Assembly (NCBI GenBank): GCA_034420475.1
Contig: DAOULH010000034.1
Location: forward strand, 4,956 to 68,955
From: Dehalococcoidia bacterium
GTDB taxonomy: Bacteria > Chloroflexota > Dehalococcoidia > Lucifugimonadales > UBA3495
Length of the DNA stretch: 64,000 bases
Direction of reading: 5' to 3'
Shown: positions 3,884-44,024 of the stretch, piece after piece
Layout: each line of letters begins with the position of its first letter
Numbering within the stretch: the stretch's first letter is position 1
Translations under genes and position numbers: made by a program
Notes under the pieces: generated by a model
Told to the model about the DNA's origin: nothing
Database searches by the model: none
What the model saw: the letters and a program-made list of their open reading frames with translations, nothing else

Positions 3884-5068
3884 ATGCCTATTTCTGAATA
3901 CGTCAGCCGTTCCATGGAAGAGGGCGGCTGGATCCGCCGCATGTTCGAAGTGGGCATCGCCCTGAAAGCCCAGTACGGCGAGGACAATGTTTTCGATCTG
4001 TCCCTGGGCAACCCGATCATGGAGCCGCCGGCCGAGTTTCACGCCGAGCTCCTGCGCATCGCCCAATCGCCCGCGCCGGGGATGCACCGCTACATGCCCA
4101 ACGCCGGCTATCCGGAGACCCGAAAGGCGGTCGCCGACACCCTGGCCGCCGAGACCGGCCTGCCCTTCAGCGTCGCCGACATCGTCATGACCTGCGGCGC
4201 GGCCGGCGCCGCCAACGTGGTGCTCCGCGCCATACTGAACCCCGGCGACGAGGTCATCATACTCTCGCCCTTCTTCGGCGAGTACGTTTACTACATCCAG
4301 AACCACAACGGCGTCCCCATCATCGTGCCCACGACGGCTGAGTTCGGCCTGGACGTTGCGGCCATTGACGCCGCCATCACCCCGCGAACCCGCGCCGTGA
4401 TGCTCAACTCCCCCAACAACCCGTCCGGCGTGGTCTATCCCTCGACAGACATCGCCGCGCTGGCGGATGCAATCTCCCAGGCCGAGAACCGCTACGGCTC
4501 AGAGATCTTCATCATCAGCGACGAGCCTTACCGCCGCATCATCTACGATGATTTGACCTACCCGCAGGTCTTCCCTCATTACGAGCGGACCATCGTGGTC
4601 AACTCCCACGCCAAGGACCTGGGTCTGCCCGGCGAGCGCATCGGCCACATCGCCATCCATCCCGATTACGCCGGGAAGGCGGAGCTGTTCGACGGCCTGG
4701 TCTTCTGCAACCGGGTGCTGGGGTTCGTCAACGCGCCGGCGCTGATGCAGCACGTGGTTCGCGCCGTGCAGGACGCCTCGGTGGACGTGGGCGAGTACCA
4801 GCGCAAGCGGGACTTTCTCTACGACCGGCTGACTGGGATGGGCTACTCGGTGGTCAAGCCCCAGGGCGCGTTCTACCTGTTCCCCTGTTCGCCCCTGGCC
4901 GATGACGAGGCGTTTGTCGCGGCCCTGCAGGAATACAACGTGCTGGTGGTTCCCGGCAAAGGGTTCGGCACACCGGGGCACTTCCGCATCTCCTATTGCC
5001 TGGAAGACCGGGTGCTGGAGGGAGCGATGGACGGTTTCGCGCGGGCGGCGGAGCAGTACCTGCGTTAG
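3884..5068 (+). CDS. pyridoxal-phosphate-dependent aminotransferase (class I/II, aspartate aminotransferase-like)
   Basis: 394-aa ORF. Fold-type I pattern including NSHAKDLGLPGERIG (PLP lysine region) and NSPNNPSG. Confidence 0.85.
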   Translation: MPISEYVSRSMEEGGWIRRMFEVGIALKAQYGEDNVFDLSLGNPIMEPPAEFHAELLRIAQSPAPGMHRYMPNAGYPETRKAVADTLAAETGLPFSVADIVMTCGAAGAANVVLRAILNPGDEVIILSPFFGEYVYYIQNHNGVPIIVPTTAEFGLDVAAIDAAITPRTRAVMLNSPNNPSGVVYPSTDIAALADAISQAENRYGSEIFIISDEPYRRIIYDDLTYPQVFPHYERTIVVNSHAKDLGLPGERIGHIAIHPDYAGKAELFDGLVFCNRVLGFVNAPALMQHVVRAVQDASVDVGEYQRKRDFLYDRLTGMGYSVVKPQGAFYLFPCSPLADDEAFVAALQEYNVLVVPGKGFGTPGHFRISYCLEDRVLEGAMDGFARAAEQYLR

Positions 5069-5670
5069 CCATCCGGCAAAGCAGCGCCCCGAATGCGGGC
5101 GAAAATCGGGCCCAGATCGATAGCGACACCGGGCATGGCGTCGGAGGTAAGAATATCATTGGGGCCGTACACTCTGGCCAATGCCATAGATCGCCCGTCG
5201 CCTACGTACTTGGCTACTGATTCGGCATTGAGGTCAACCGCCAGCATTTCGCGGACGCCATTGCGAGCGTATACGGGCAGTTTCACCTCCAAATCGCGGC
5301 TCCGCGTGGATGCGGACAGCACTTCAACCACCACGTCGGGCGCGCCGTTAATACCGTGATTAACGTCGTCAAAAATGTGACGGCGCTCGTTGGAGACGAA
5401 CAGCACATCAGGTTGAAATGTGTTGTGCTCGTCAATGGCTACGTCGTAAGGCGCGACGCGGGTTTCGCCGATGTCCAGCGCATCCGTTTGTAATGTGAGC
5501 TGAATATAAAATCGTCCAGTGAACACCTGATGCGGGTCATCGGGCCCGGCCATTTTGACGATTACTCCCTCGATCAACTGATAGCGCACGCCACGATGCG
5601 ACGGTGGCGTCAGCTTCATGTAGTCTGCCCCGGTCAACTTGACCCGCAGTTTCGCTTTGGTCTGCGTCAT
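5065..5670 (-). CDS. Uma2 (DUF820) family endonuclease, tandem copy 1
   Basis: MTQTKAKLRVKLTGADYMKLTPPSHRGVRYQLIEG...PDV..V.....APD.VVEVLS.S pattern typical of Uma2. Paralog of the next two genes. Confidence 0.8.
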   Translation of the reverse strand: MTQTKAKLRVKLTGADYMKLTPPSHRGVRYQLIEGVIVKMAGPDDPHQVFTGRFYIQLTLQTDALDIGETRVAPYDVAIDEHNTFQPDVLFVSNERRHIFDDVNHGINGAPDVVVEVLSASTRSRDLEVKLPVYARNGVREMLAVDLNAESVAKYVGDGRSMALARVYGPNDILTSDAMPGVAIDLGPIFARIRGAALPDG

Positions 5671-5703
5671 GGTGTGCCCTCCCGGCGATGCAAACGGCTC
5701 TGA

Positions 5704-6291
5704 TTATATTGCGCTCCTTAGTCGGCCGAATATCGTAGCCAGATCGATGGCGACGCCGGGCATCACGTCAGAGGTCAAAGTATCTTCCGGGCCGTACACC
5801 TGGGCCAGGGTGAGCGTTTCGCCATAGCCAATGTATTTGGACACCGTTTCAGCGGGCAGGTCCGCCATCCAGGCTTCCCGGACGCCGTTCCGGCCGTACA
5901 CTGGAAGTTTGACGTTGAAGTCCCGCTGGCGAGTGGATTCGGACAGCACTTCTACCACCAAATCCGGCGCCCCAGTTACGCCACGATTGGTAATGACGTG
6001 TCTCCGGTCAACTGACACGAACAGCAAATCGGGCTGAAAGGTATTGTGCTCGTCAATGTACACGTCAAACGGCGCAATGCGGGTTTCTCCGAGACCGAGC
6101 CCCCTCGTTTGTGTCCGCACTTCGATGTACAGCTCTCCGATAAACACCTGATGCGGGTCGTTGGGGCCGGCCATCTTAATCAGTTCCCCTTCAATCAACT
6201 GATAACGGACGCCGCGATGCGACGGTGGCGTCAGCTTCAGGTAGTCTGCCCCGGTCAACTTGACCCGCAGTTTCGCTTTGGTCTGCGTCAT
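5704..6291 (-). CDS. Uma2 (DUF820) family endonuclease, tandem copy 2
   Basis: 195 aa. First ~35 codons nearly identical at DNA level to copies 1 and 3. GGGAGGG RBS in the conserved 33-nt spacer. Confidence 0.8.
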   Translation of the reverse strand: MTQTKAKLRVKLTGADYLKLTPPSHRGVRYQLIEGELIKMAGPNDPHQVFIGELYIEVRTQTRGLGLGETRIAPFDVYIDEHNTFQPDLLFVSVDRRHVITNRGVTGAPDLVVEVLSESTRQRDFNVKLPVYGRNGVREAWMADLPAETVSKYIGYGETLTLAQVYGPEDTLTSDVMPGVAIDLATIFGRLRSAI

Positions 6292-6324
6292 GGTGTGCCC
6301 TCCCGGCGATGCAAACGACTCTGA

Positions 6325-6912
6325 TTATATTGCGCTCCTTAGTCGGCCGAATATCGTAGCCAGATCGATGGCGACACCGGGCAAGGCGTCGGAGGTCAAA
6401 ATATCATCGGGGCCATACACCTGGGCCAGGGTGAGCGTTTCGCCATCCCCGACATATTTTGAAACGGTTCCGTTGCGTAAGTCCGCTACCCACATCTCGC
6501 GGACGCCGTTGCGGGCATACACGGGCAACTTCACGTTCAGGTCTCGTTGCCTCGTGGATTCGGACAGCACTTCCACCACCACGTCCGGCGCTCCGTTCAC
6601 TCCGCGCTCGCTCAAAATATGCTGCCGCTCGGCGGACACGAACAGCAGGTCAGGCTGAAACGTGTTGTGCTCGTCAATGTAAACATCGAAGGACGGGAGC
6701 CTGATCTCAAAGGTCCCCGGTGAGCCAATCTGTAACCTGGCGGCAAAGTACAACTCTCCGATAAACACCTGATGCGGGTCATTGGGCCCGGCCATCTTAA
6801 TCAGTTCCCCTTCAATCAACTGATAGCGCACGCCACGATGCGACGGTGGCGTCAGCTTCATGTAGTCTGCCCCGATCAACTTGACCCGCAGTTTCGCTTT
6901 GGTCTGCGTCAT
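6325..6912 (-). CDS. Uma2 (DUF820) family endonuclease, tandem copy 3
   Basis: 195 aa. Same conserved ends as copy 2 (C-terminus ATIFGRLRSAI identical). Period of 621 bp between copies 2 and 3. Confidence 0.8.
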   Translation of the reverse strand: MTQTKAKLRVKLIGADYMKLTPPSHRGVRYQLIEGELIKMAGPNDPHQVFIGELYFAARLQIGSPGTFEIRLPSFDVYIDEHNTFQPDLLFVSAERQHILSERGVNGAPDVVVEVLSESTRQRDLNVKLPVYARNGVREMWVADLRNGTVSKYVGDGETLTLAQVYGPDDILTSDALPGVAIDLATIFGRLRSAI

Positions 6913-14432: not shown

Positions 14433-14629
14433 TCGAGCGCCCCGGCCGCCGGCTGCGGCGTCGCGGAGTATAGCATGGTACCCTTGAGAACAGCGGACGA
14501 GCCGCCAACGAAGCCGGCTGATTGCTCCTTGTGCCGGTGGTTCCCGGCGTGCGGTATAATCCTGGGCAACCCCGCCGGAGGGCCAGCCGTCGCCTGTCGC
14601 CCGCCCGGCAACAACTGAGGAGAAGCTAG

Positions 14630-15097
14630 ATGCCAGGTCAAATCGGCGACACCGCGCCGGACTTCACTCTCCCGTCCCCCAACGACGGAGACATTTCATT
14701 GAGCAACTACCGCGGCACCCATACCGTGGTTCTGTCCTTCCACGTCCTGGACTTCACCAGCGGTTGAACGGACCAGGCCACCTCCTTCCGCCGCTTCAAC
14801 GCGCGGTTCCAGGAGTTGAATGCCCAGGTGCTGGGCATCAGTTGTGACCACGTAGCCGCTCACCGGGCCTGGACCACCACCATGGGCGGGCTGCCCTATC
14901 CCGAACTGTCTGACTGGCATCCCAAAGGCCAGGTGACCACCGCATACGACCTCTGGAACGACGAGCGTGGCGCCGGAACCCGCGCCGTGATCATCGTCGA
15001 CCCGCAAGGCGTCATCCGGTATCGGGAGACCTACCAGCCGGGCACCCTGCCCGATCCGGAGGACATCCTCCAGGCCGTGTCCGACATCAACGGCTAA
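14630..15097 (+). CDS. BCP-type peroxiredoxin with in-frame TGA (14765-14767) at the peroxidatic Cys position; candidate selenoprotein
   Basis: ATG 14630 with GAGGAG RBS. Reads MPGQIGDTAPDFTLPS...VVLSFHVLDFTSG-TGA-TDQATSF and continues in the same frame into the 14816 ORF (GISCDH...IIVDPQGVIRY). The TGA aligns with C of the DFTPGCT motif. Confidence 0.7.
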
Positions 15098-15102
15098 AGC
15101 AA

Positions 15103-15130
15103 TTGGGGCGGGTTGCAGAACCCGCCCCAA
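15103..15130. terminator. bidirectional hairpin between the convergent peroxiredoxin and greA genes
   Basis: ttggggcgggtt-gcag-aacccgccccaa, a 12-bp perfect stem followed by tctttg. Confidence 0.6.
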
Positions 15131-22179: not shown

Positions 22180-22202
22180 CGCGCTACAAAATCGAATAGG
22201 TT

Positions 22203-22322
22203 TCTGGCGGGAGCTTGGTTATGCCAGGCTGAGAGGGCGGCCGAAAAAAGCCGCCGACCGTAGCACCTGATCCGGGTAATGCCGGCGTAGGAAGTTGGAA
22301 TCATCTTTTACGTGCCGCCAGA
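22203..22322 (+). promoter_or_regulatory. TPP (THI-box) riboswitch
   Basis: Conserved cores GCUGAGA (22228-22234) and ACCUGAUCCGGGUAAUGCCGGCGUAGGAAG (22265-22294). P1 candidate tctggcgg (22203-22210) pairs with ccgccaga (22315-22322). Confidence 0.9.
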
Positions 22323-22398
22323 GTTTTAGAGCCTGGCGGTTTCTCGTTTTGCGGCAACCGCCTCCGTTCACCTATTCGAAGCAACCGGGAGGTTGGTT

Positions 22399-23898
22399 AT
22401 GCTGGATACCACCGTAGGGATCATTACCCTGGTAATCGCATGCGCCGTGTTCCTCGTCCTGGGCCTGACTTATGCCTGGCGTCGCCGTCGCCAGAGCGTG
22501 GAGGACTACACCACCTCCCGGAACCATGCCCCGTTCAACGTCGGTGTCGCCACCCTGGTCGCCTCAATGTTCGGGACCTGGGTGCTCCTCAGCCCCGGCG
22601 AGACCGGCGCTAACTTCGGCATCATCTCCCTGGTCGGCTACGCCCTGGGAATGGCGGGAATACCGGTGATGTTCATGTTCGTCGGCCCGCGCATCCGTGC
22701 GCTGATGCCCAACGGACACTCGGTCACCGAGTATGTGCGCCACCGCTTCGGGATGGTCCCGTTCGTCTCCATTTTCGTGGTCATCATCTTCGTCATCGGC
22801 ATCTTCATCACCGCGGAGATGACCGCCATCACCGCCGCGGTGAGCATCCTCACCGGTTCGCCGGCGTGGGCCACGGCGGTCGCCGTCGGGATCGTAGTCA
22901 TCGCCTACACCGCCTACGGTGGCCTCCGCGTCTCCATCTACACCGACCGCATCCAGTTCTGGATCCTGATCCCCGTCCTCCTGCTGCTGGTTATCGTTGC
23001 CGCCGTTCTGGTGGGCGGCTCCGGCGCCTGGGGCGAGGCCAAACAGGCCGGCCTGCTATCGGTCACCACCTCGGGCAGCTACTTCTTCGCCATCGTGCTG
23101 ATCATCGGCATCGTGGCGTCCAACGCCTTCCACCCCGGAATGTGGCAGCGCGTGTACACCGTGGAGAGCCAGGCGGCGCTGAACCGCAGCCTCTGGGGCG
23201 CGGCGGCCATCGCCATACCGTTGACCTTCCTGATGGGCATGGCCGGCATCGCCGCCGTCGGCAACGGTTCCGTCGGCCCCTTCCAGTACCCCGAGGTCGC
23301 CGCCGCCCTGTTCACCCTGGCCGCTGACGTGTTCCCCCTGTGGATGCACTTCCTGATCCTCATCTGCGCCCTCATGCTCGCCATGAGCACCCTGGACACC
23401 CTGATGAACGGCCTGGCCAGTGGCATGGCCGCCGACCTCGCCGGGATTGGCCTGGAACGGAGGATGCTGATGGGTTTGGCCCGAGCCGTCACCGTGATCG
23501 TGGCCATCCCGGCGATCATCGTGGCTTCCCAGGGCCACAGCGTGCTCTACGTCTTTCTCATCGCCGACCTGCTGGGCGCCGCCATCGCTGTGCCCATGCT
23601 GGTGGGCTTGTATTCCAGCCGTATGCCCGGCTGGGGAGTAATCCTCGCCGGAGCCGTTGGCATCGTCATCGGCGCCCTCTACTACCCCAAACCGGACCTG
23701 CTCTCCCCGTGGGCGCTCACCGCGCCCGCCGGAGGCCAGATGTTCTGGGCTTTCGCATCTGCGCTGGTGATCTCATCCGTCATTTCGGCGGTGGTGGTCC
23801 TGGGTCAGCGCATCGTGGCGCCCGACAGCCAGTACGACTTCGCCATCCTCAACTCCGACGTCAGCCTGATTGACGAACCCGCCGCAGCGGACGACTGA
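22399..23898 (+). CDS. sodium:solute symporter (SSS) family transporter, TPP-riboswitch controlled (ThiV-like, putative thiamine-precursor uptake)
   Basis: ~499-aa polytopic membrane protein with SSS-like organisation. GGGAGG RBS 6 nt before ATG 22399. Directly downstream of the riboswitch and upstream of thiC. Confidence 0.75.
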   Translation: MLDTTVGIITLVIACAVFLVLGLTYAWRRRRQSVEDYTTSRNHAPFNVGVATLVASMFGTWVLLSPGETGANFGIISLVGYALGMAGIPVMFMFVGPRIRALMPNGHSVTEYVRHRFGMVPFVSIFVVIIFVIGIFITAEMTAITAAVSILTGSPAWATAVAVGIVVIAYTAYGGLRVSIYTDRIQFWILIPVLLLLVIVAAVLVGGSGAWGEAKQAGLLSVTTSGSYFFAIVLIIGIVASNAFHPGMWQRVYTVESQAALNRSLWGAAAIAIPLTFLMGMAGIAAVGNGSVGPFQYPEVAAALFTLAADVFPLWMHFLILICALMLAMSTLDTLMNGLASGMAADLAGIGLERRMLMGLARAVTVIVAIPAIIVASQGHSVLYVFLIADLLGAAIAVPMLVGLYSSRMPGWGVILAGAVGIVIGALYYPKPDLLSPWALTAPAGGQMFWAFASALVISSVISAVVVLGQRIVAPDSQYDFAILNSDVSLIDEPAAADD

Positions 23899-25863
<1,965 letters not shown>

Positions 25864-25965: not shown

Positions 25966-26406
25966 ATGGCTGGGTCAGCCAAAGCCGATACATCCGCCCC
26001 ATCCGGCGACACCCCGATGCTGGCCCGCTTGACCGATGGGAGGAACATCGCCATTTTCAACTGGGCCAAGACCAGCTTGCCGGATGCGGAGTGGTTTGAG
26101 GTGGACTGCGACGATGAGGGCCGCATCGTGTTGACGCCGGCCAAAGACGTTCCGGCAGAGGCTTATGCCTGGGCGCAGCAGCGGGACGTGATAGCCGCCG
26201 CGCAGAAACCCCGCCCCTACGCCCACCTGACCACCGACGAATTGCGGGACGTGGAGATGACGCAGGAAGAGCGGCTTGCGGAGTTGGTCGCCCGTGGAGT
26301 CATTAGCCCCAACAAAAAAGTTCCCGGCCAGCTCTCAGTCAAGCCTGTAGCTCGCGTGCCCGGCGCGTTGGAACGCTTTTTGAAAGAACGCCGGGGGGAG
26401 GCCTAG
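25966..26406 (+). CDS. type II antitoxin (VapB-like) partner of the downstream PIN toxin
   Basis: 146-aa ORF with AGGAGG RBS. Its stop abuts the toxin ATG (TAGATG). The C-terminal VPGALERFLKERRGE tail is typical of antitoxins paired with PIN toxins. Confidence 0.55.
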   Translation: MAGSAKADTSAPSGDTPMLARLTDGRNIAIFNWAKTSLPDAEWFEVDCDDEGRIVLTPAKDVPAEAYAWAQQRDVIAAAQKPRPYAHLTTDELRDVEMTQEERLAELVARGVISPNKKVPGQLSVKPVARVPGALERFLKERRGEA

Positions 26407-26808
26407 ATGCTGGACATGCCGCATCCGCCAATCGCCTACGTGGACGGGTCGGCGTTGCTGTCTATCATTTTTGAGGAGAACGCCGGCGCGGCCACCAGCC
26501 GGCGGCTGGCGCAATTCACATCCCTGATTTCCTCAATCCTGCTAGAGGTGGAAGTTCGCGCCGCCATGTTCCGAGCGGGTCAGGATTACGATCCGCGTTG
26601 GCTGTCAGACATCAGGTGGATGTATCCGACCCGCCCGCTGGGCCCCGAAATCGCCGCCGCCTTGCAGGTTCGTTACTTACGAAGCGGCGACCTGTTGCAC
26701 GTCGCTACTGCGCTGTATGCTGTCAGAACATACGGTATAGAACTGGCTTTTGTCACCTTGGACAACGACCAGCAAGAGGTGGCCGCCGGCTTGGGATTCG
26801 CCACTTGA
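26407..26808 (+). CDS. vapC: PIN-domain toxin (VapC family)
   Basis: YVDGSALLSIIFEE..., SILLEVEV, SGDLLHVATAL, VTLDNDQ: the conserved acidic residues of the PIN fold in a 133-aa protein. Confidence 0.75.
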   Translation: MLDMPHPPIAYVDGSALLSIIFEENAGAATSRRLAQFTSLISSILLEVEVRAAMFRAGQDYDPRWLSDIRWMYPTRPLGPEIAAALQVRYLRSGDLLHVATALYAVRTYGIELAFVTLDNDQQEVAAGLGFAT

Positions 26809-26868: not shown

Positions 26869-27915
26869 CTATCTGAACACCGCCAGGCACTTGGTGGAGT
26901 TGAAGATGTAGGTCTCGTACCAGTCCACGATCTCCGCCTGGTAGCCCAGTTCGTCCACCGCCCCCACCAGGCAGGCCCAGTTGAGCAGTTCCTGCTGGCC
27001 GGCGTCCTCAATCTGCGCGGTGGAGATTCCCGCCCACGCCTGGTAGTCACCTGCCTTCATTTCCTCGAACCGCGCCCGGTCCGATTCGATATCCGGATAC
27101 AGCCACCAGTTCTTTTCCGTCAGGAAAGCGTGGGACCATGACGAAGAGGCGATCAGGGCGACGCGCCACGGCGAGTCCTTGAGAGCCTGGGCCGCCGCCG
27201 CGCCAATCTGCATGCACCGCTTGGGCGATGGACCGGGCGGGTCCGGATCCGGCGAACGTTCCTCGCTGCCGCCCTGGTTGCGAATCACCCGGCTGCCGTA
27301 GCAGTTCACCAGCATCGGCACCACCGGATAGTCGAACCCCTTCCGGTCGTAATCAAGGTACAGGATCGTGTTCAGGATGGCGTGGCCCAGCCCCGGCTCG
27401 TGCAGCGGCTGGTAGGCATAGGACATGTCAACGCCCCGGTCGATCATGCCGGACACCAGCGCTCGCGCGCCTTCCTTGTGACCCTTGTAGTTGAACACCG
27501 TGTCCGCGCCTTCATCCCAAACATTCCGGCGCGCTGACCCATTGCCGTTGTCGAAGGGCTGGCAGTTGAATTCGTCGTAGGCCAGCACACAGAACGGCGG
27601 AATGATGTCCTCTTTGAAATTCTCGTACTGGTCGTCGCCCCAGATCACCACGAAGTCGGGGTTGAAGGCGTCCAGTTCCTTGCGCAGTTCGCGGAAGCCG
27701 GCCACCATACGCTCCCGCAGCCGCACCGCCGACGCGTAGCCCTCATCCTCACCGAATTCCACCCGCATGGGCTCCGGCCAGTTCAGCGGGTTCTTCATCT
27801 CGGCGGGGATCCGGTCGTTGGTACGCAGGGTCCGCTTCAACGACGATTCTCCGTCCTCGTCGGGCCGGATGAACGACGGCGAATGCGTCAGTCCCAGCCC
27901 CAGTATTTCCGCCAT
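26869..27915 (-). CDS. class III extradiol dioxygenase-like protein (LigB/MhpB superfamily), paralog A
   Basis: GLTHSPS, FNPDFVVIWGDDQYENFKEDIIPPFCVLAY, ASSSWSHAF parallel the MhpB segments [44 protein letters not shown] (from memory). Confidence 0.6.
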   Translation of the reverse strand: MAEILGLGLTHSPSFIRPDEDGESSLKRTLRTNDRIPAEMKNPLNWPEPMRVEFGEDEGYASAVRLRERMVAGFRELRKELDAFNPDFVVIWGDDQYENFKEDIIPPFCVLAYDEFNCQPFDNGNGSARRNVWDEGADTVFNYKGHKEGARALVSGMIDRGVDMSYAYQPLHEPGLGHAILNTILYLDYDRKGFDYPVVPMLVNCYGSRVIRNQGGSEERSPDPDPPGPSPKRCMQIGAAAAQALKDSPWRVALIASSSWSHAFLTEKNWWLYPDIESDRARFEEMKAGDYQAWAGISTAQIEDAGQQELLNWACLVGAVDELGYQAEIVDWYETYIFNSTKCLAVFR

Positions 27916-27943
27916 GATTGCCCTCCTTCCTCGATGTATTACC

Positions 27944-27971
27944 GCGGGGGCGAATAATCATTCGCCCCCGC
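27944..27971 (-). terminator. hairpin between the two dioxygenase-like paralogs
   Basis: gcgggggcgaa-taatca-ttcgcccccgc, 11-bp stem, 3' of the upstream (27993) gene on the minus strand. Confidence 0.4.
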
Positions 27972-27992
27972 CTGTGCACGTTATCCGACGGC

Positions 27993-29027
27993 CTACTTGA
28001 AAATCGCCAGGCACTTGTTGGAGTTGAACACGTAGGACTCGACGTAGTCGAGGATTTCAGGCTTGTAGTCCAGCGTGTCCATCGCGCCGGCCAGGCACAT
28101 CCAGTTCAGCATCTCCTGCTGGCCGGCGTCCTCCACCTGCTCCGTCGAGAGCCGGGACCAGGCCTGGTAATCACCGGCCTTGAGTTCCTCGAACCGGGCC
28201 CGGTCCGACTCCGTGTCAGGCCATAGCCAGTGGTTCTTCTCCACCAGGAAGGCGTGGGACCAGGACGACGAGGCGATCAGCGCCACGCGGTAGGGCGAGT
28301 CCTTCAGGGCCTCTGCCGTGGCCGCGCCGACCTGCAAGCACCGCTTGGGCGTCGGCCCGGGCGGGTCGGGATCCGGCAGGTATTCGACGGCGCCGCCCCG
28401 GTTGCGGATCACCCGGCTGCCGTAGCAGTTGACCAGCATCGGCACCACTGGATAATCGAACCCCTTGCGGTCGTAGTCCAAGTACAGCAGCGTGTTCAGG
28501 ATGGCGTGGCCCAAGCCGGGCTCGTGCAGCGGCTGGTAGGCGTAGGCCATGTCCACGCCCCGGTCGATCATGCCGGACACCAGCGCCCGCGCGGCCTCTT
28601 TGTTCCCCTGGTACTTGAAGACCTTGTCCTTGGGTTCGCCCCAGAAGTTCCGCTGCCGGTGAGCGAAAGGCTGGCACTCGAAATCGTCGTAGGCCAGCAC
28701 GCAGAAGGGCGGGATGATGTCCTCGCGGAAGTTCTCGTACTGGTCGTCGCCCCAGATCACCACGAAGTCGGGATTGAAGGCATCCAGCTCCTCGCGGATG
28801 CGACGGAAGCCGGCCACCAGCCGGGCTCGATGCTCCAGCGACGACGTGTAGCCCTCGTCCTCGCCGTACTCGATGCGCATGGGCTCCGGCCAACTGGTGG
28901 GGTTTTTCAGTTCGTCCGGGATGTTCTTGTTGCCCTTGAGCGTGCGCGTCAGCGGATACGCCCGATCTTCGTCGGGCGCCATCAAACCCGGGTAATGGGT
29001 CATGCCGAGGCCAAGTATTTCTGCCAT
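27993..29027 (-). CDS. class III extradiol dioxygenase-like protein (LigB/MhpB superfamily), paralog B
   Basis: By eye ~75% identical to paralog A over the full length. Start set at MAEILGLG (ATG 29027) to match paralog A. Confidence 0.6.
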   Translation of the reverse strand: MAEILGLGMTHYPGLMAPDEDRAYPLTRTLKGNKNIPDELKNPTSWPEPMRIEYGEDEGYTSSLEHRARLVAGFRRIREELDAFNPDFVVIWGDDQYENFREDIIPPFCVLAYDDFECQPFAHRQRNFWGEPKDKVFKYQGNKEAARALVSGMIDRGVDMAYAYQPLHEPGLGHAILNTLLYLDYDRKGFDYPVVPMLVNCYGSRVIRNRGGAVEYLPDPDPPGPTPKRCLQVGAATAEALKDSPYRVALIASSSWSHAFLVEKNHWLWPDTESDRARFEELKAGDYQAWSRLSTEQVEDAGQQEMLNWMCLAGAMDTLDYKPEILDYVESYVFNSNKCLAIFK

Positions 29028-29305
29028 ATCGTCACCTTCCATGCTTCATTGCGGTGTTGACGGTATTGATGGCGACATTTTCTGTATCCCGCCGGGATGT
29101 GTCAACCGAAAACGCTCGCGACGGCAATCCCATCGCCCGGTATTCGAAAACCTTCCCACCGGCCGTAACGCGCTGGCGATCTCACCCGGCACCGGCCGTG
29201 TCGCCCTTCGTCAGACCACTGCATCATCCGAAATTTGCCGAATGGTACAATCGAGCATCGTCAACCAGCCGCCACGATTCAATCAACCATCAGAGAGGTA
29301 ACCCC

Positions 29306-30232
29306 GTGCCCGACCAGAACTTCGACGTCATTATTATCGGCGGCGGCATGGCCGGCCTGACCGCCGGCATCTACGCCGCCCGCCAGGGCCTGAGCACCGC
29401 CGTTGTTGAGCAGATGATGGCCGGCGCTCAGATCATCAACCTGGAGCGCATCGAGAATTTCCCCGGTTTCCCCCAGGGCATCGCCGGCTACGAATTGGGC
29501 CCGGCCACCCAGGAACAGGCGATGAACGCCGGCGTGGAGGTGCTGATGGACACCGTCGCCAGCGTATCCGCCGACGGCGACTACCTCCGCGTCGCCGGCG
29601 AGGGCGGCGGTTCCTACCTCGGCAAGGCCGTGATCATGGCGGCCGGCTCAACCCTGCGCACCCTGGGCATACCGGGGGAGGAGGAGTTCCTCGGCCGCGG
29701 CGTGTCGCACTGCGCATCCTGCGACGGCCCGCTGTACATGGGACAGACCGTTGCCGTGGTCGGCGGCGGCGACTCCGCGGCCGACGAAGCCCTGACCCTG
29801 ACCGAGTACACCGACCGCGTCATCCTCTTCCACCGGGGCGACAGCCTGGACTCGCAACAGGTTTTGCAGGACCGCATCGCCGCCCAGCCGAAAATCGAGG
29901 TGCGGTACAACTCCGAGGTCATCGAGGTAGTCGGTGAAGATACCGTCACCGGCGTCCGCGTTCGCAGCGCCGACGGTGAGAACGTCGAACCCGTGGCCGG
30001 ACTCTTCGTGTACGTCGGCCTGGAGCCCAACTCGTCTCCGGTTTCCGACCTGGTTCCGCTGGATAACGCCGGACACATCCCGGTGGGACTCTCCATGGAC
30101 ACGCCGCAGCCCGGACTGTTCGCCGCCGGCGACATCCGTCAGCAATCCGCGGCCCAGTTGGTCGCCTCCGCCGGCGACGGCGCCACCGCGGCCATCGCCG
30201 CGCACCGGTACATCCGCTCCCGCCAGTGGTGA
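29306..30232 (+). CDS. trxB: thioredoxin-disulfide reductase
   Basis: FDVIIIGGGMAGLTAGIYAAR, redox CxxC in HCASCDG, VVGGGDSAADEA, AAGDIR. GTG 29306 with GAGAGG RBS. The upstream part of the 29054 ORF is not protein-like. Confidence 0.85.
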   Translation: MPDQNFDVIIIGGGMAGLTAGIYAARQGLSTAVVEQMMAGAQIINLERIENFPGFPQGIAGYELGPATQEQAMNAGVEVLMDTVASVSADGDYLRVAGEGGGSYLGKAVIMAAGSTLRTLGIPGEEEFLGRGVSHCASCDGPLYMGQTVAVVGGGDSAADEALTLTEYTDRVILFHRGDSLDSQQVLQDRIAAQPKIEVRYNSEVIEVVGEDTVTGVRVRSADGENVEPVAGLFVYVGLEPNSSPVSDLVPLDNAGHIPVGLSMDTPQPGLFAAGDIRQQSAAQLVASAGDGATAAIAAHRYIRSRQW

Positions 30233-30241
30233 GGTTCCGCC

Positions 30242-31072
30242 ATGCAGATCACCGACCACGTTTACAGCACCCACATCCAGGAAGACCCCAGCACCTTCGG
30301 GGCGATGCACCCCGGCGGCACCCAGATCTATTTCGTGGGCGACCCGTCGGAAAGCATGGTCATGATCGATTCCGGCGAACCTTACCGCTTCTGGACCCGC
30401 CAGATCCTGGACTACTGGGCGGAACTGGGCAGCCCTCGCATCGACGCCATCCTGATCACCCACGGCCACGGCGACCACATCGGCGGCCTGGACCGTTTGC
30501 AGGAAGCCTTCGGCTGCCCGGTCCGATGCCATCCCAAGCTTGCGCCGCGCCTGCAGCACACCCTCGGCGGTGATTCGGTCCATGCTCTGCGCGCCAACGA
30601 GACCATATCCTCGGGCGGCGGCGTGACCCTGCGCCCGCTGTTCACTCCCGGCCACGAGGACGACCACTGCTGCTACTTCCTGCGTCCCGATCGCGTTCTC
30701 TTCAGCGGGGACAACCTGCTGGGCAACTCCTCGTCCAGCGTGCGCAACCTCAAGCAGTACATGACCTCCCTGGAACGCATGGCCCGCACGCGGCCGCTGG
30801 TGGTGTGCCCCGGCCACGGCAACACCATTATCCGGGGTCAGCAGCGCATCCAGCAGCAGATCGCCCACCGCCTCAGCCGGGAGGACCAGGTTCTGGCCGC
30901 GCTGGATGACGGCGCAACCACCGTCGACGAGATCGTAACCGCCGTGTACCCGCGCAACCTGCGTCGATCCCTGCGCGCCGCGGCCGGGCGCAACGTGCGT
31001 ACCCACCTGGAAAAGCTGCGCCAGGAAAACCGCGTCATCGAGCGCGAAGCCACTTACGTCCTGCCCGACTAA
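30242..31072 (+). CDS. MBL-fold metallo-hydrolase (glyoxalase II-like) with C-terminal winged-helix-like tail
   Basis: ILITHGHGDHIGG, TPGHEDDH, PGHG motifs. Confidence 0.8.
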   Translation: MQITDHVYSTHIQEDPSTFGAMHPGGTQIYFVGDPSESMVMIDSGEPYRFWTRQILDYWAELGSPRIDAILITHGHGDHIGGLDRLQEAFGCPVRCHPKLAPRLQHTLGGDSVHALRANETISSGGGVTLRPLFTPGHEDDHCCYFLRPDRVLFSGDNLLGNSSSSVRNLKQYMTSLERMARTRPLVVCPGHGNTIIRGQQRIQQQIAHRLSREDQVLAALDDGATTVDEIVTAVYPRNLRRSLRAAAGRNVRTHLEKLRQENRVIEREATYVLPD

Positions 31073-39398: not shown

Positions 39399-40448
39399 TT
39401 ACAGGTTGAACTGCGGGTCCAGGTAGGTGTCGTCCTTTTCGTAAACCTGCAGCCGTGACCGCAGGGTGTCGCACACCAGCAGCCGGTTGTTGGCCCGGTC
39501 GAAGTTGACGCCCATGGGCATCCGGAAGGTGCGCTGCTGCTGCTCCAGGTCGGGGACCCGGCGGCGTGCCTTCACCATGTCGGGGTTGGCGTTGAGCGAC
39601 AGGTCGCCCCATTCCGACACCTCGGTGGCGTCCCCTTCCAGGTAAGCCAAAGGACGAGCGTCGGCATCGTAGATCACGACGCGCTCGTTCATCCAGTCCG
39701 CCACGTACACGTCGCCCTCGTTGTCGATGGTGACGTCCAGCGGGTGGTTGAGCTCACCGGAGCGGGTGCCGCGGCTGCCGAAGGTGCGCAGGTGGGTTCC
39801 GCCCGCCGTGTACTTCTGCACGCGGTGGTTGCCCCAGTCGGCGATGTAAAGGTCGCCGGCATCGTCGATGGCGATGCCCGAGGGCATCTCCAGGTCCTCG
39901 GCGCCGTTGCCCTTGGTGCCGAAGCCTCCCAGGTAATCGCCGTCCTTGCTGAACTTCTGGACGCGGCTGCTCTTGGCCGAAACCACCCAGAGGTTGTCGT
40001 CGGCGTCAAAAGCCAATCCGGCGGCGCCGCTGAGCTGGCCTTCGCCATCACCGGCTTCGCCCCAGTGCTTCACCAGGTTTCCGTCGGCGTCGAACACGGC
40101 GACCATGTTCTTCCACTCGTCGGAAGCGTAAACGCTGCCGGCGGAATCGATGGCAATGCCAGTGATCCACTCGAAGAGGCCCCTGGAGCTGGCCTGGTAG
40201 GCAATGCCTTCACGGCCGAATTCACCCAGGAATTCCTCGCCGCCCTTGCCGTCGGTGTTGCCGATGGTGCACTTGGTGATGCGGGCGCTGGGGTTCTGCT
40301 CACCGCCGCGGTTGGCGACGTACATCGTGCCGTCATCAAGGGTCGCCACGCCAACGGGCTGGCTGAAACCCATGCCCACCTGCCCCTGGCGGCCCACATT
40401 CTTGATGTACAGCCATGCCCGACCGCTTGCTACGGTATTCTGAGGCAT
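39399..40448 (-). CDS. NHL-repeat beta-propeller protein
   Basis: Six recurring units of the type G.G.L..P.G.A.D..G..YVAD..N.RV..F. GGAGGA RBS 7 nt before ATG 40448. Confidence 0.8.
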   Translation of the reverse strand: MPQNTVASGRAWLYIKNVGRQGQVGMGFSQPVGVATLDDGTMYVANRGGEQNPSARITKCTIGNTDGKGGEEFLGEFGREGIAYQASSRGLFEWITGIAIDSAGSVYASDEWKNMVAVFDADGNLVKHWGEAGDGEGQLSGAAGLAFDADDNLWVVSAKSSRVQKFSKDGDYLGGFGTKGNGAEDLEMPSGIAIDDAGDLYIADWGNHRVQKYTAGGTHLRTFGSRGTRSGELNHPLDVTIDNEGDVYVADWMNERVVIYDADARPLAYLEGDATEVSEWGDLSLNANPDMVKARRRVPDLEQQQRTFRMPMGVNFDRANNRLLVCDTLRSRLQVYEKDDTYLDPQFNL

Positions 40449-40535
40449 AGTTTTTCCTCCACTTGAAATGCGTTGGACCGGCGGCACCGCAGCCGATTGG
40501 CCACGCCGCCGCCGTTTTTAGCTGGGCCGTTGGAC

Positions 40536-41669
40536 TTACTTCTTGATGATGTCCAGCTTCGGGAAGGCGCCGTTGACGATAGGGTTGGCGTCCATGCCAA
40601 GCCAGTCCTCAACGATGCTGGAGTACGCGCCGCGGAAGTCGTAGTTGGGAACCAGGTCGCCCTGTTCCAGGTCCTCGGCCTTGCGGGACGGGTACTCACC
40701 GTAGAAGCCACCCTGGACGCTGTCGCCGATGGCGAAGGCTACGCCGGCAGCGCCGTGGTCGGTGCCGGAGCCGTTGTCGCGGACGCGGCGGCCGAACTCG
40801 GAGAACAGGTACATGACGATGTTCTCGCCGGTGTTGTGCTCCTTCATGTCCTCGAAGAAGGCGCTGATGCCCTCGGAAACTTCCTTCCACAGCACCGGGT
40901 GGGCCGCGGCCTCACCGGCGTGGGTGTCGAAGCTGCCGTGCTGGGTGTAGAAGATCTTCGTGCCCAGATCGGCCATGTACACCTGGGCGATGTCACGCAG
41001 GTGGGAGGCGATGGGGCTGTTGGGGTACTCGACGTTGCTGGAGTACCGCTCCGGCGCAACCTTCACAATGTCGGCGCCAACCATGGCGTCCGTGCCGGTG
41101 GAGCGCAGGTAGTCGTTCACAAAGCTGCCGCCCACGGTGGGAGCGTACATCTTGGAGAACAGGTCAAGAGCCTTGGAGCGCTGGTCAACGTCGGCGATGC
41201 CGGTGAGCAGGCCATAGGTGCTCAGGTCGGCGATGGCGGCTACGGGGACGCCGGGGACGGCCAGCGCGCGGGGCAGGCCGTGGCCGAAGTTGATGGCCGT
41301 CAGCACGTTTTCCTTGTTCGGGTCCATCTCGCGAGCGACGCGGCCGGCCCAACCCTCGGTGCCAACCTTGTCCGGCTCACAGGTGTGCCAGATGTCCATG
41401 CTGCGGAAGTGCGAGCGGGGGCTGTCGGCGTAGCCGATGCCATGGATGACGGCGACCTTGCCCTGGTCAAAGAGCTCCTTCATGGGGCCCATGGTGGGGG
41501 CGAAGCCGAGCTCGTCGTTGACCGGGATGATGTCTTCGCGCTCGTAACGAACCGCCGGGCGGTTGTCGTAGTACGTCGCGTCGTTGTAGGGGATCACCGT
41601 GTTGAAGTAGTCGTTGCCGCCGGTGAGCTGCAGGACCACGATGACCGGATCTTTCTTGGTGGAGGTCAT
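40536..41669 (-). CDS. DUF1501 (sulfatase-like) domain protein, no Tat/Sec leader
   Basis: VVLQLTGGNDYFNTVIP, GIGYADSPRSHFRSMDIW, SEFGRRVRDNGSGTDHG. AAGGAG RBS before ATG 41669. Confidence 0.8.
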   Translation of the reverse strand: MTSTKKDPVIVVLQLTGGNDYFNTVIPYNDATYYDNRPAVRYEREDIIPVNDELGFAPTMGPMKELFDQGKVAVIHGIGYADSPRSHFRSMDIWHTCEPDKVGTEGWAGRVAREMDPNKENVLTAINFGHGLPRALAVPGVPVAAIADLSTYGLLTGIADVDQRSKALDLFSKMYAPTVGGSFVNDYLRSTGTDAMVGADIVKVAPERYSSNVEYPNSPIASHLRDIAQVYMADLGTKIFYTQHGSFDTHAGEAAAHPVLWKEVSEGISAFFEDMKEHNTGENIVMYLFSEFGRRVRDNGSGTDHGAAGVAFAIGDSVQGGFYGEYPSRKAEDLEQGDLVPNYDFRGAYSSIVEDWLGMDANPIVNGAFPKLDIIKK

Positions 41670-41764
41670 TGCGTATGCTCCTTGTCTGATGTGCGTTTCG
41701 TCGGATGACGAGTTGTGGCGATGGACAGGCCGGAAAGTTGCCGGCCCGTCCAGCACCTTCCGGT

Positions 41765-43165
41765 TTAGCCGAACTGGTACTCGGTGGTGGCGCTGATCAG
41801 GGCCATGGTCTCACCGATACGAGTCGCGGTGGAGATCCGGTCGTCCCAGTTGACGTCGCCGCCGGAGCGGACGTGCTCGGCCAGCTGGCCGCGGGTCTCC
41901 TCGCTGAGCTCGATGAAGCCCATGTACTCGGTGCAGGCGTTCAGCAGGTGGTCCGGGGTGGTTACGCCGTCGTCCCGCATACGGTCGACGATGTCCTGCA
42001 TACCGGGCAGATCCGGGTTGGAAACGCGGTCGGCCACGAAGTTGATGCGGGCCAGCAGGGCGCCGGAGTTGATCCACTCCAGGCCGGTGTGCCAACCTTC
42101 CACCGACGGCGGGTCCAGGATGGACTGGCCCATGTAGGTGGGCTCCTTGCCGATGTTCAGGACGCCGGGATCCGGGTTCTCGAACAGGCCGACCATCCGA
42201 AGGGTGCCGGCGACCACTTCGGCCGGGCTCTTGATCTTCTGGTAGCGGGCGTCCTTGAACCACTGGGAGTTGAACATGTGGCGCAGGACGGCCTTCATCT
42301 CGAAGCCGGACTGCTCGAACACGTCTATCATCTCTTCCAGCGCGTCCTCATCGCGGGCCGGCTCAATGGTCCAGGCCGGAACCTGGGGCTCGTCGGCGAC
42401 GAAGAAGTTGTAGAGGTGGCGACAGATGAAGCGGGAGGTGGCCGGCTCTTCGAGGATGATGTCGATGATGTCCTCGCCGTCGAAGTTGCCGGTGCGGCCC
42501 AGGAAGGTCTTTTCACCGAAGTCGTGGTCGGCTTCGTTGTAGGAGAACTTCCACGGATAGCGGCCGTACGGAGCGCGCGGCAGCTTGGCCTGAATGGTCC
42601 AGCCGGTGAAGGCACGCGAGCACTCGCGAACGTCGACCTCGGTGTAGTTGGAAACGCCCATGGAGAACAGTTCCAGGAGCTCGCGGCCCCAGTTCTCGTT
42701 CACGGCGTCCCGGTGGTTCTCGTTGTTGTCCAGCCAGAAAATCATGGCCGGGTTCTTGGACAGTTCGATCAGAATGTCCCGATAGTTACCCATGCCGTGC
42801 TCGCGCAACATGTCGATCTGCTCGAGCAGCTGGTCGCAGTTGTCAACCTTGGAGTTGCCGGTCGCGAACACGTGGTGCCAGAACAGCGTCATCTTCTCTT
42901 CCAGGGGCCGGTCGCTGGATACCATGTTGTACATCCAGTTGGCCTGGCCGGAGAAGGGAACGCCGCCGGGGAGCAAGAAGCTGGGGTGGTACCGGAGCAG
43001 GAGAGCCATCTTCCCACCCTCGCGGTTTGCAGGGGGATCGATCAGCTCTTCCACGGTGGCTTCGTAACCCTGGGCAACGCATCGCTCCAGCTCTGCGCGG
43101 TTGGCGCCAAAGCCGGCGCGCCGCATCAGGTGGGCCATCAATGCCAGGTCATCCTTTTGTGACAT
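41765..43165 (-). CDS. DUF1800 domain protein
   Basis: HLMRRAGFGA..., MTLFWHHVFATG, typical partner of DUF1501. GGAGG RBS before ATG 43165. Confidence 0.8.
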   Translation of the reverse strand: MSQKDDLALMAHLMRRAGFGANRAELERCVAQGYEATVEELIDPPANREGGKMALLLRYHPSFLLPGGVPFSGQANWMYNMVSSDRPLEEKMTLFWHHVFATGNSKVDNCDQLLEQIDMLREHGMGNYRDILIELSKNPAMIFWLDNNENHRDAVNENWGRELLELFSMGVSNYTEVDVRECSRAFTGWTIQAKLPRAPYGRYPWKFSYNEADHDFGEKTFLGRTGNFDGEDIIDIILEEPATSRFICRHLYNFFVADEPQVPAWTIEPARDEDALEEMIDVFEQSGFEMKAVLRHMFNSQWFKDARYQKIKSPAEVVAGTLRMVGLFENPDPGVLNIGKEPTYMGQSILDPPSVEGWHTGLEWINSGALLARINFVADRVSNPDLPGMQDIVDRMRDDGVTTPDHLLNACTEYMGFIELSEETRGQLAEHVRSGGDVNWDDRISTATRIGETMALISATTEYQFG

Positions 43166-43245
43166 CCTGTGCCTCCTTCCTTCGATTTGATGCCGTTTTT
43201 GCCGGGATTCCATGCGCCGTTCCCGGTCTCACGACGGTTGCCGCT

Positions 43246-43274
43246 AGTGTAATTTAGTTGCCGCACCCTGTCAA
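43246..43274 (-). promoter_or_regulatory. near-consensus promoter for the DUF1800 operon
   Basis: Minus strand TTGACA (43274-43269), 17-nt spacer, TACACT (43251-43246). Confidence 0.55.
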
Positions 43275-43363
43275 CAAATCGGCGTATCGCTCAAATTTGA
43301 TAATGATTATAAACTGGTAACGAAGGGCAAAGACGGGGCAAGGCGCTAGAGGTCCCCCGGTGG

Positions 43364-43573
43364 TTAGGCCCACTCAAATTCGTCTCTGGATCTGCCAAAT
43401 TGCCGGATGATCCCGATCACTGTGCCAACTTTCAAATCTCGGCTGCTCCAGTTAGGAATGGCAGCCTGCGCACGATTTTCGGGGTTTATCCACATCTCGT
43501 GGCCGCCGCGTCTCTGCCGGTCAGAACGGCAATTCAGCCGACGCAACTTGCGGGTAAGTTCCCGGTAGGTCAA
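43364..43573 (-). CDS. hicA: HicA family mRNA-interferase toxin
   Basis: 69 aa. LRRLNCRSDRQRRGGHEMWINP......IPNWSSRDLKVGTVIGIIRQFG fits the HicA/YcfA pattern. 4-nt overlap with hicB. Confidence 0.8.
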   Translation of the reverse strand: MTYRELTRKLRRLNCRSDRQRRGGHEMWINPENRAQAAIPNWSSRDLKVGTVIGIIRQFGRSRDEFEWA

Positions 43574-43818
43574 GCTGTGACAGTAACCTCGCCGGTCTGC
43601 ACCGGCCTCTCCACCAGTGCGGTTGGCAGTCCCAATCCGCGTTCCTGGTAAGACTGTATAAAGGCTTCTGCCATGCCTTCCAGGATGTACAACGTTTCGG
43701 CTGGGGAGTCTCCCCAGGCGCAGCAGCCCGGCAGAGCCGGTATTTCCGCCATGTACTTATCATCCTCAGTGCTATCAGCGGGTTCGTACATTACGTAGGC
43801 AAGCTTGTACCGCTTCAT
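43570..43818 (-). CDS. hicB: HicB family antitoxin
   Basis: YMAEIPALPGCCAWGDSPAETLYILEGMAEAFIQSYQERG is the HicB/UPF0150 N-terminal fold pattern. Start set at MKRYKL (43818). Confidence 0.75.
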   Translation of the reverse strand: MKRYKLAYVMYEPADSTEDDKYMAEIPALPGCCAWGDSPAETLYILEGMAEAFIQSYQERGLGLPTALVERPVQTGEVTVTA

Positions 43819-43961
43819 TTGACGCAGACCCTCCGGCCATTCTTTCCGCTGAAACGATAGCAAACGGGCCGGGCTGGCCGCAAGATAGCCACCCCGGATC
43901 AGCTCGGCCGCCACAGGGAAACGGGGCGGCCGGAGTAGAAACCGTGCTTAGCGGGCGTATT

Positions 43962-43994
43962 CCGGGGCGCGGCGGAATCGTTGCCGCGCCCCGG
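43962..43994 (-). terminator. hairpin 3' of the LRR gene
   Basis: ccggggcgcggc-ggaatcgtt-gccgcgccccgg, 12-bp perfect stem 31 nt after the minus-strand stop at 44025. Confidence 0.5.
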
Positions 43995-44024
43995 TCCTGC
44001 TCCGGCCGCTCGTCTCCAGGCCCA

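Follow-up and report, generated by a model that had tools for sequence, protein, structure and literature searches.

Gene organization and the in-frame TGA codon

We analyzed a 64-kb stretch of DNA from a Dehalococcoidia bacterium (64,000 nucleotides; the whole stretch is called the window in this study). On the forward strand, a frame of 155 codons runs from ATG 14630 to a TAA stop and contains a single in-frame TGA, codon 46, in the context DFTSG-TGA-TDQ. Reading and translation of the DNA confirmed the ATG, the GAGGAG ribosome-binding site, and the sole in-frame TGA that were given in the preliminary description. As it had also noted, the ORF list gave 14816–15097 alone, which corresponds to the C-terminal 93 aa. 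The features of the gene are as follows.

14617–14622 (+): Shine-Dalgarno-like GAGGAG, 7-nt spacer to ATG 14630, read from the sequence
14630–15097 (+): predicted full selenoprotein coding sequence for an AhpE-like peroxiredoxin, 155 codons plus TAA (15095–15097), based on translation, Pfam, and PDB match
14756–14758 (+): Thr43 codon, T of the TxxU motif, aligned with the Thr of AhpE FTGIC and invariant in 81 sequences
14762–14769 (+): invariant GGT-TGA-AC context of the putative selenocysteine (Sec) codon, columns 4–11 of alignment A2 (see below)
14765–14767 (+): codon 46, UGA predicted to be read as selenocysteine (U46) at the peroxidatic position; TGA conserved, Cys in homologues at the same column
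14816–15097 (+): 93-aa fragment with a TTG start, reported by ORF finders and gene callers instead of the full gene
14843–14845 (+): Cys72 codon (GISCD), second invariant Cys and candidate resolving residue, in 81 sequences and also in close Cys forms
14981–14983 (+): Arg118 codon, conserved peroxiredoxin active-site Arg, invariant in 81 sequences and aligned with the Arg of AhpE 'NRGTFV'
15103–15130 (no strand): 12-bp perfect inverted repeat TTGGGGCGGGTT-GCAG-AACCCGCCCCAA with a 4-nt loop, between the convergent peroxiredoxin (prx) and greA-like genes, read from the sequence

When Cys was put at codon 46, the 155-aa product matched Pfam AhpC-TSA (PF00578) with an E-value of 6.3e-35 and a score of 120.3 bits, exceeding the gathering cutoff of 26. 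The match covers model positions 1–123 of 124, and therefore the domain spans the TGA. Of the active-site motif PxxxTxxC and the accompanying Arg, the Thr (Thr43), the peroxidatic column (U46), and the Arg (Arg118) are all present and invariant, and the Pro is replaced by Val39. This Pro is near-universal in peroxiredoxins. Val39 (codon 14744–14746) is invariant throughout the clade in both Sec and Cys forms, which share the pattern FHV[L/F]xFTxG[U/C]. The Gly45 codon immediately before the TGA is GGT in 81/81 sequences, with an entropy of 0.0 bits compared to 1.4–1.7 bits for other Gly codons.

The prx gene is monocistronic and convergent with the GreA-like gene. The inverted repeat between them is possibly a bidirectional terminator. 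A consensus promoter and terminator scan called neither around the prx gene, and the repeat went uncalled because no T-run follows it.

Assignment to the AhpE type

We compared the predicted protein with solved structures and curated family models. The top seven PDB matches were all Mycobacterium tuberculosis AhpE or an AhpC/TSA protein of the same type (E-values 3.5e-26 to 4.5e-24). Prx1-type structures followed from 2e-18 (about 1e-17), and BCP structures at about 1e-11. In the alignment with AhpE, codon 46 coincides exactly with the peroxidatic Cys (FTGIC versus FTSGU), and Thr43 and Arg118 match the catalytic Thr and Arg. The TGA was thus correctly placed at the peroxidatic Cys position in the preliminary description, and homologues carry Cys at the same column.

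The BCP-type assignment made there had to be abandoned. The Bcp model (NF006960) scored 50.7 bits against a cutoff of 140, and the BCP structures (about 1e-11) compare with 6e-25 for AhpE, so that a BCP/PrxQ identity was rejected. We also rejected the PrxU equivalog (NCBIfam NF040737; 68.3 bits against a curated cutoff of 270) and the thiol peroxidase Prx-SUH selenoprotein (NCBIfam NF045827; 36.6 bits against a curated cutoff of 298). No NCBIfam model claims the protein of the window. Judged by these matches, the predicted protein is AhpE-like, neither BCP-type nor PrxU.

Conservation of the TGA codon and purifying selection

We scanned one genome per GTDB species, which gave 219 loci, and retained the best 80. 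These were Dehalococcoidia/SAR202 MAGs, many with sponge-derived bin names, together with Ca. Entotheonella TSY1 and E. palauensis. TGA was found at codon 46 in 80/80 of these orthologues (the best 80 of 219 loci), at protein identities of 97–68%. The same 80 all start with ATG and have zero indels through codon 153 and zero other stops. Other disabling mutations in close relatives, which the preliminary description had regarded as evidence against recoding, were therefore not present in the 80 orthologues. Pairwise Nei-Gojobori dN/dS was 0.13 for codons 2–45 and 0.08 for codons 73–153, with dS of about 1.4–1.5. These ratios indicate that the two halves are both translated and under constraint.

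TGA is also used as a normal stop codon. It ends 19/60 of the genes called in the window and terminates 13/80 of the orthologous prx genes themselves. A scan of the window for other TGA-interrupted genes returned only adjacent genes sharing a frame and no credible internal TGA, and a second selenoprotein gene was not found there. Since TGA serves as a terminal stop elsewhere and no other internal TGA was seen, the code is standard.

The two Entotheonella loci, L064 (sp. TSY1) and L075 (E. palauensis), have the same TGA-containing prx gene with the upper stem of hairpin 1 (described below) intact. Entotheonella belongs to a different phylum and has the sponge habitat in common with SAR202, which suggests that this gene was transferred horizontally or is of ancient origin.

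RNA structure downstream of the UGA

For comparative RNA analysis, we used a gap-free alignment of 67 distinct orthologous sequences (A2), in which the TGA occupies columns 7–9 and the window position equals 14758 plus the column number. Two hairpins are predicted 3' of the UGA.

14781–14813 (+): hairpin 1, candidate SECIS, A2 columns 23–55, comparative register with compensatory changes
14781–14785/14809–14813 (+): lower stem of hairpin 1, 5 bp, comparative register, followed by a UU/UU internal loop
14788–14792/14802–14806 (+): upper stem of hairpin 1, 4–6 bp, with the innermost pair C-C and unpaired in the window itself
14820–14838 (+): hairpin 2, 8-bp stem ATGCCCAG/CTGGGCAT with a GUG loop, A2 columns 62–80, from RNAalifold, 59–60 nt after the UGA

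The two-hairpin structure was paired in 89.4% of cells, compared to 29–43% when the partners were slid by 1–3 columns. Its covariation score was 0.163 against 0.094 ± 0.005 in shuffles, and 0/500 shuffles reached the observed value. Compensatory pairs of hairpin 1 (A2 columns) were 24–54 (CG 47/UA 11) and 27–51 (GC 30/AU 6), with 33–45 (GC 30/CG 28) and 34–44 (CG 25/UA 13) in the upper stem. The hairpin-2 pair 64–78 varied as GC 51/GU 13/AU 3. In the common register imposed on hairpin 1, third codon positions are paired with each other. Several of the compensatory positions are synonymous third-position sites, and the signal is therefore at the RNA level. Normalized codon entropy was 0.41 in codons 45–70 versus 0.73 elsewhere (Mann-Whitney p 2.6e-6), and dS in the hairpin region was 0.98 versus 1.4–1.5 elsewhere. 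The stem-loop on which the preliminary description had made recoding depend is thus present after the TGA of the orthologues and covaries across 67 sequences.

Hairpin 2 was paired in 99.8% of cells in the 67 sequences, and synonymous variation was almost nil in codons 64–66 and 68. Since 6–7 of the 8 pairs persist in Cys forms, the AQVLGI peptide partly or largely imposes the stem of this hairpin, which is fixed more strongly in the Sec forms.

RNAalifold applied to the 67 sequences returned hairpin 2 and a dubious helix enclosing the UGA. Hairpin 1 was missed because the subgroups differ in its MFE register, which in the window itself is displaced by 3 nt (14782–14786/14811–14815 and 14790–14794/14803–14807). 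An all-against-all column pairing scan was noisy and flagged only pair 26/38, and Rfam gave no SECIS-like family match at gathering or permissive thresholds. The single hairpin drawn by eye at 14782–14815 in the preliminary description agrees with the single-sequence MFE fold. The fold of 14760–14830 was, however, not better than shuffles (z = −0.4), the comparative register is slightly different, and there are two hairpins instead of one.

Fit to the bacterial SECIS consensus

We scored the MFE fold of each of the 67 sequences by the bSECIS criteria (PMC13188914 Fig. 2), namely a loop of 3–9 nt, an upper stem of at least 4 bp, a G in the first two loop positions, a spacing of 16–37 nt, and an MFE of −7.5 or lower. 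Hairpin 1, whose apical loop lies 25–27 nt after the UGA, satisfied the spacing and the energy in 67/67 sequences and the loop size in 66/67. A G in the first two loop positions was found in 16/67, and all five criteria were satisfied together in 9/67. Hairpin 2 satisfied the loop and G criteria in 67/67, but its spacing of 59–60 nt is outside 16–37 nt.

Some bacterial SECIS elements do not conform to the consensus (PMC13188914). The predicted SECIS of the prx gene is mildly atypical, with the canonical features split over two hairpins, and hairpin 1 is the primary SECIS candidate by its position. Non-consensus bacterial SECIS elements are poorly understood, and this gene would add to them a well-covered example, represented by 67 distinct sequences that covary at synonymous sites.

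Homologues in databases and Cys forms

A protein search returned 827 homologues. Approximately 100 of the best 120 of these 827 are C-terminal fragments of 85–127 aa that start right after the equivalent of codon 46. This pattern is the signature of gene callers halting at a recurrent in-frame stop. Full-length homologues carry Trp (P0001, P0005–7, and P0009–10) or Cys (P0008, P0011–13, and P0106) at the catalytic column. The 'Trp' homologues are TGA translated under code 4, as checked on the DNA of locus L085, which encodes P0010. The gene is thus systematically mis-called in public data, either as fragments or with Trp at the catalytic site. As a result, functional surveys in effect overlook an antioxidant enzyme that is conserved in 80 or more species of Dehalococcoidia/SAR202 and Entotheonella, and correction of this widespread mis-annotation is the main practical consequence of our analysis.

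The Cys-containing orthologues or paralogues of the clade (P0008/L081 and P0011–13/L082–84) are 55–64% identical to the window's Sec form and have the motifs FHV(L/F)xFTxG[C/U] and GISCD in common with it, but carry TGC or TGT where the window gene has TGA. L081 also keeps the adjacent GreA-like gene. Used as controls, three distant Cys forms keep 4–5/10 of the hairpin-1 pairs and 6–7/8 of the hairpin-2 pairs; unlike in the Sec forms, hairpin 1 is absent from them. The closest Cys orthologue, L081, retains 8/10 hairpin-1 and 8/8 hairpin-2 pairs, a pairing that would fit a recent Sec-to-Cys switch. L081 keeps both hairpins, and therefore the structure is not strictly Sec-exclusive.

L085 (202–693), a Sec form from a soil metagenome, is 81% identical to the Cys form L082. 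It has the hairpin CUGCCG-CGUUU-CGGCAG 16 nt after the UGA, more proximal than in the window gene and absent from its Cys relatives. This is evidence of a putative independent or diverged SECIS within the family. Judging from these alignments, Sec and Cys interchange in this peroxiredoxin family, and the proximal hairpin is clade-specific.

Selenocysteine machinery

ARAGORN detected neither tRNA nor tRNA-Sec in the 64-kb window or in approximately 680 kb of flanks of the 80 orthologues. Pfam annotation of about 50 window genes gave no SelA, SelB, or SelD, and no sel gene was found in the flanks of the 80 orthologues. Evidence for the machinery is indirect and concerns related MAGs: SelA and SelB co-occur in most symbiont bins of the sponge Aplysina aerophoba (Slaby et al. 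2017, PMC5649159). In Table S4 of that study (PMC5649159), the counts of SelA, SelB, and SelD are 3, 1, and 1 for SAR202 bin87 and 2, 1, and 1 for bin22. Both bins are represented among our orthologues: bin87 is locus L004, whose peroxiredoxin is 96% identical to that of the window, and bin22 is locus L065, which carries a prx orthologue. The 8.5 kb around the prx gene showed 86–92% nucleotide identity and conserved gene order with these Dehalococcoidia loci, which places the window in their group. SelA and SelB are known to be enriched in sponge symbionts, and the peroxiredoxin would give this enrichment a specific selenoprotein as substrate. It also suggests that defence against peroxides depends on selenium in the sponge habitat, which is oxygenated and exposed to ROS.

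Alternative explanations

A nonsense pseudogene and a sequencing error had been named as alternatives in the preliminary description. If the TGA truncated a dead peroxiredoxin gene, or came from a sequencing or assembly error, its reading as a stop by gene callers and the ORF list would be correct, and the lack of sel genes within the window would also agree. We consider that this has practically no chance of being true: 80 assemblies, independent of one another and from different species, share this TGA and have no further stops or frameshifts, the start codon and the ribosome-binding region are conserved, and dN/dS stays at 0.13 before and 0.08 after the TGA, whereas a dead gene would gain lesions and drift to about 1. 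With dS of about 1.4–1.5, the orthologues are not recent copies of one sequence. It is very improbable, too, that a standard amino acid (Trp, Cys, or Gly) is inserted at the UGA through code reassignment or near-cognate read-through. Low-level insertion of Trp or Cys at UGA is known in bacteria and counts for this reading, as does the Trp that some gene callers put here (P0001, P0005–7, and P0009–10). Trp at the peroxidatic position would, however, abolish catalysis; TGA ends 19/60 window genes and 13/80 orthologous prx genes, no other window gene has an internal TGA, and the covarying downstream structure together with SelA, SelB, and SelD in related MAGs fits Sec recoding. Because the TGA is conserved, selection acts on both sides of it, and TGA stops are otherwise normal, pseudogene, sequencing error, and code reassignment are excluded for practical purposes.

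Regulated termination at the TGA would yield a 45-aa N-terminal peptide, a separately initiated C-terminal fragment, or both, with the hairpins acting as attenuator or pause signals. Internal TTG and GTG starts do exist downstream of the TGA, and hairpin 1 misses the canonical loop criterion in most sequences. Nevertheless, we give this explanation only a very slight chance, since neither fragment has a complete thioredoxin fold or catalytic residue and the internal starts lack a conserved ribosome-binding site and lie inside the hairpin-forming coding sequence. Moreover, both halves are in one frame without indels in 81 sequences, and the Cys-form homologues are single polypeptides.

Proposed function of the selenocysteine codon

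We propose, with a probability of roughly 0.93, that the gene at 14630–15097 encodes a 155-residue AhpE-type peroxiredoxin with selenocysteine as the peroxidatic residue (codon 46, UGA). At the level of sequence, replacement of Cys by Sec is strongly supported by the conservation of the TGA (80/80, the best 80 of 219 loci), purifying selection on both sides, the covarying stem-loop, and the Cys that homologues have at this column. These observations support the candidate selenocysteine of the preliminary description.

From bacterial Sec biology, the structured mRNA 3' of the UGA would recruit SelB with Sec-tRNA(Sec), so that UGA would be read as Sec and not as a stop. The recruiting structure would consist of hairpin 1, whose apical loop lies about 25 nt from the UGA, and of hairpin 2 behind it. 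In line with peroxiredoxin chemistry, the Sec residue would then react as a selenolate with a hydroperoxide in the Thr43/Arg118 active site and be converted to a selenenic acid. This acid may be resolved by Cys72, which is invariant and clade-specific, through a selenenylsulfide, by a reductant of the thioredoxin or glutaredoxin type, or by both. A thioredoxin-type system may recycle the enzyme.

At 29054–30232, the window encodes a Pyr_redox_2 protein of 392 aa that resembles thioredoxin reductase and is extended N-terminally by approximately 90 aa. A gene for a metallo-beta-lactamase-fold protein comes next in the same frame after a TGA stop, and the two together occupy the region 29054–31072 (+). 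The Pyr_redox_2 protein, whose gene is 14 kb away, is a possible redox partner of the peroxiredoxin.

A joint reading, which we hold to be rather unlikely, would combine a bipartite non-canonical SECIS, a pre-adapted hairpin 2, and a Cys72 selenenylsulfide mechanism in a Pro-less active site. Hairpin 2, with its invariant GU-first 3-nt loop, would be the SelB-binding element and the covarying hairpin 1 a folded spacer, which would bring hairpin 2 to a canonical effective distance of 13 + 6 + 8 = 27 nt from the UGA when hairpin 1 is left out of the count. The hairpin-2 stem, already largely encoded by AQVLGI, would in this case be a 'pre-adapted' SECIS. If this were true, the pre-adapted hairpin 2 would help explain repeated Cys-to-Sec switches in the peroxiredoxin family.

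Other features of the window

A TPP riboswitch (Rfam RF00059, 59.3 bits) at 22197–22311 (+) lies upstream of a sodium:solute symporter-family gene (22393–23898), which is followed by the ThiC gene (23983–25863, +); the two genes are in one frame across a TGA stop. The riboswitch, the symporter, and ThiC look like a thiamine-regulated transporter and biosynthesis unit. Three Uma2-family genes (putative restriction endonuclease-like) are arranged in tandem at 5065–6912 (−), encoding 195–201 aa with 33-nt spacers. A PIN-domain gene (26407–26808) abuts a gene for a 146-aa protein without a Pfam match, together spanning 25966–26808 (+) as a toxin-antitoxin-like pair. The toxin-antitoxin class is enriched in sponge symbionts (PMC5649159).

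The region 39399–45845 (−) encodes an NHL-repeat protein, a DUF1501/DUF1800 pair, and a leucine-rich-repeat protein of 606 aa. The eukaryote-like repeat proteins of this region fit a sponge-symbiont lifestyle. Two LigB-like paralogues (aromatic ring-opening dioxygenase) of approximately 348 aa stand in tandem at 26869–29042 (−), which agrees with the repertoire for degrading aromatic compounds that has been described in SAR202.

Comparison with known systems

The closest solved structure is M. tuberculosis AhpE (Rv2238c; PDB 1XXU and 1XVW), with an E-value of 6e-25 over aligned residues 5–143. Across the AhpE structures, these two among them, E-values range from 3.5e-26 to 7e-25. The two proteins have in common the length class of approximately 153 aa, the positions of the Thr, the peroxidatic residue, and the Arg, and the C-terminal motifs PxLSDxxPxGxVxxAY. 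They differ as follows: the peroxidatic residue is Cys in AhpE and predicted to be Sec in the window protein, the canonical Pro of PxxxTxxC in AhpE is Val39 in the window protein, and the Val of AhpE 'ISVG' is Cys72 (GISCD) in the window family. M. tuberculosis AhpE is a 1-Cys, mycoredoxin-dependent peroxiredoxin. A mycothiol/mycoredoxin partner would not be expected in Chloroflexota, and a 1-Cys mechanism cannot be assumed for the window protein because of its second invariant Cys (Cys72).

PrxU of Eubacterium (Peptoclostridium) acidaminophilum is reportedly a Sec-containing peroxiredoxin, said to have been verified experimentally by Sohling and co-workers in 2001. The AhpC/TSA fold, Sec in place of the peroxidatic Cys in TxxU, and UGA recoding by a stem-loop within the coding region are the points of likeness to the predicted window protein. 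The differences are the peroxiredoxin subfamily, the length (155 aa compared to a 233-position model), the source (an anaerobic Firmicute for PrxU, aerobic/marine Dehalococcoidia for the window protein), and the extra invariant Cys72 in the window protein.

Similar to the SECIS of the E. coli fdhF type, a coding-region stem-loop is predicted immediately 3' of the UGA; hairpin 1 fits the spacing, loop size, and energy, and the small loop of hairpin 2 begins with GU or GG. In contrast to that type, no single hairpin fits all criteria here in most sequences.

Sec-for-Cys peroxiredoxins in bacteria, to which the preliminary description had rightly referred, form an established selenoprotein family, 'Peroxiredoxin (Prx), PF00578, TxxU' (PMC13188914), with 91 proteins counted in 78 organisms (PMC5029168). 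Our literature search found no description of an AhpE-type Sec form or of SAR202 selenoproteins. Thus, Sec-peroxiredoxins are already known as a family, and the window gene would add to it an AhpE-type form with a mildly atypical SECIS.
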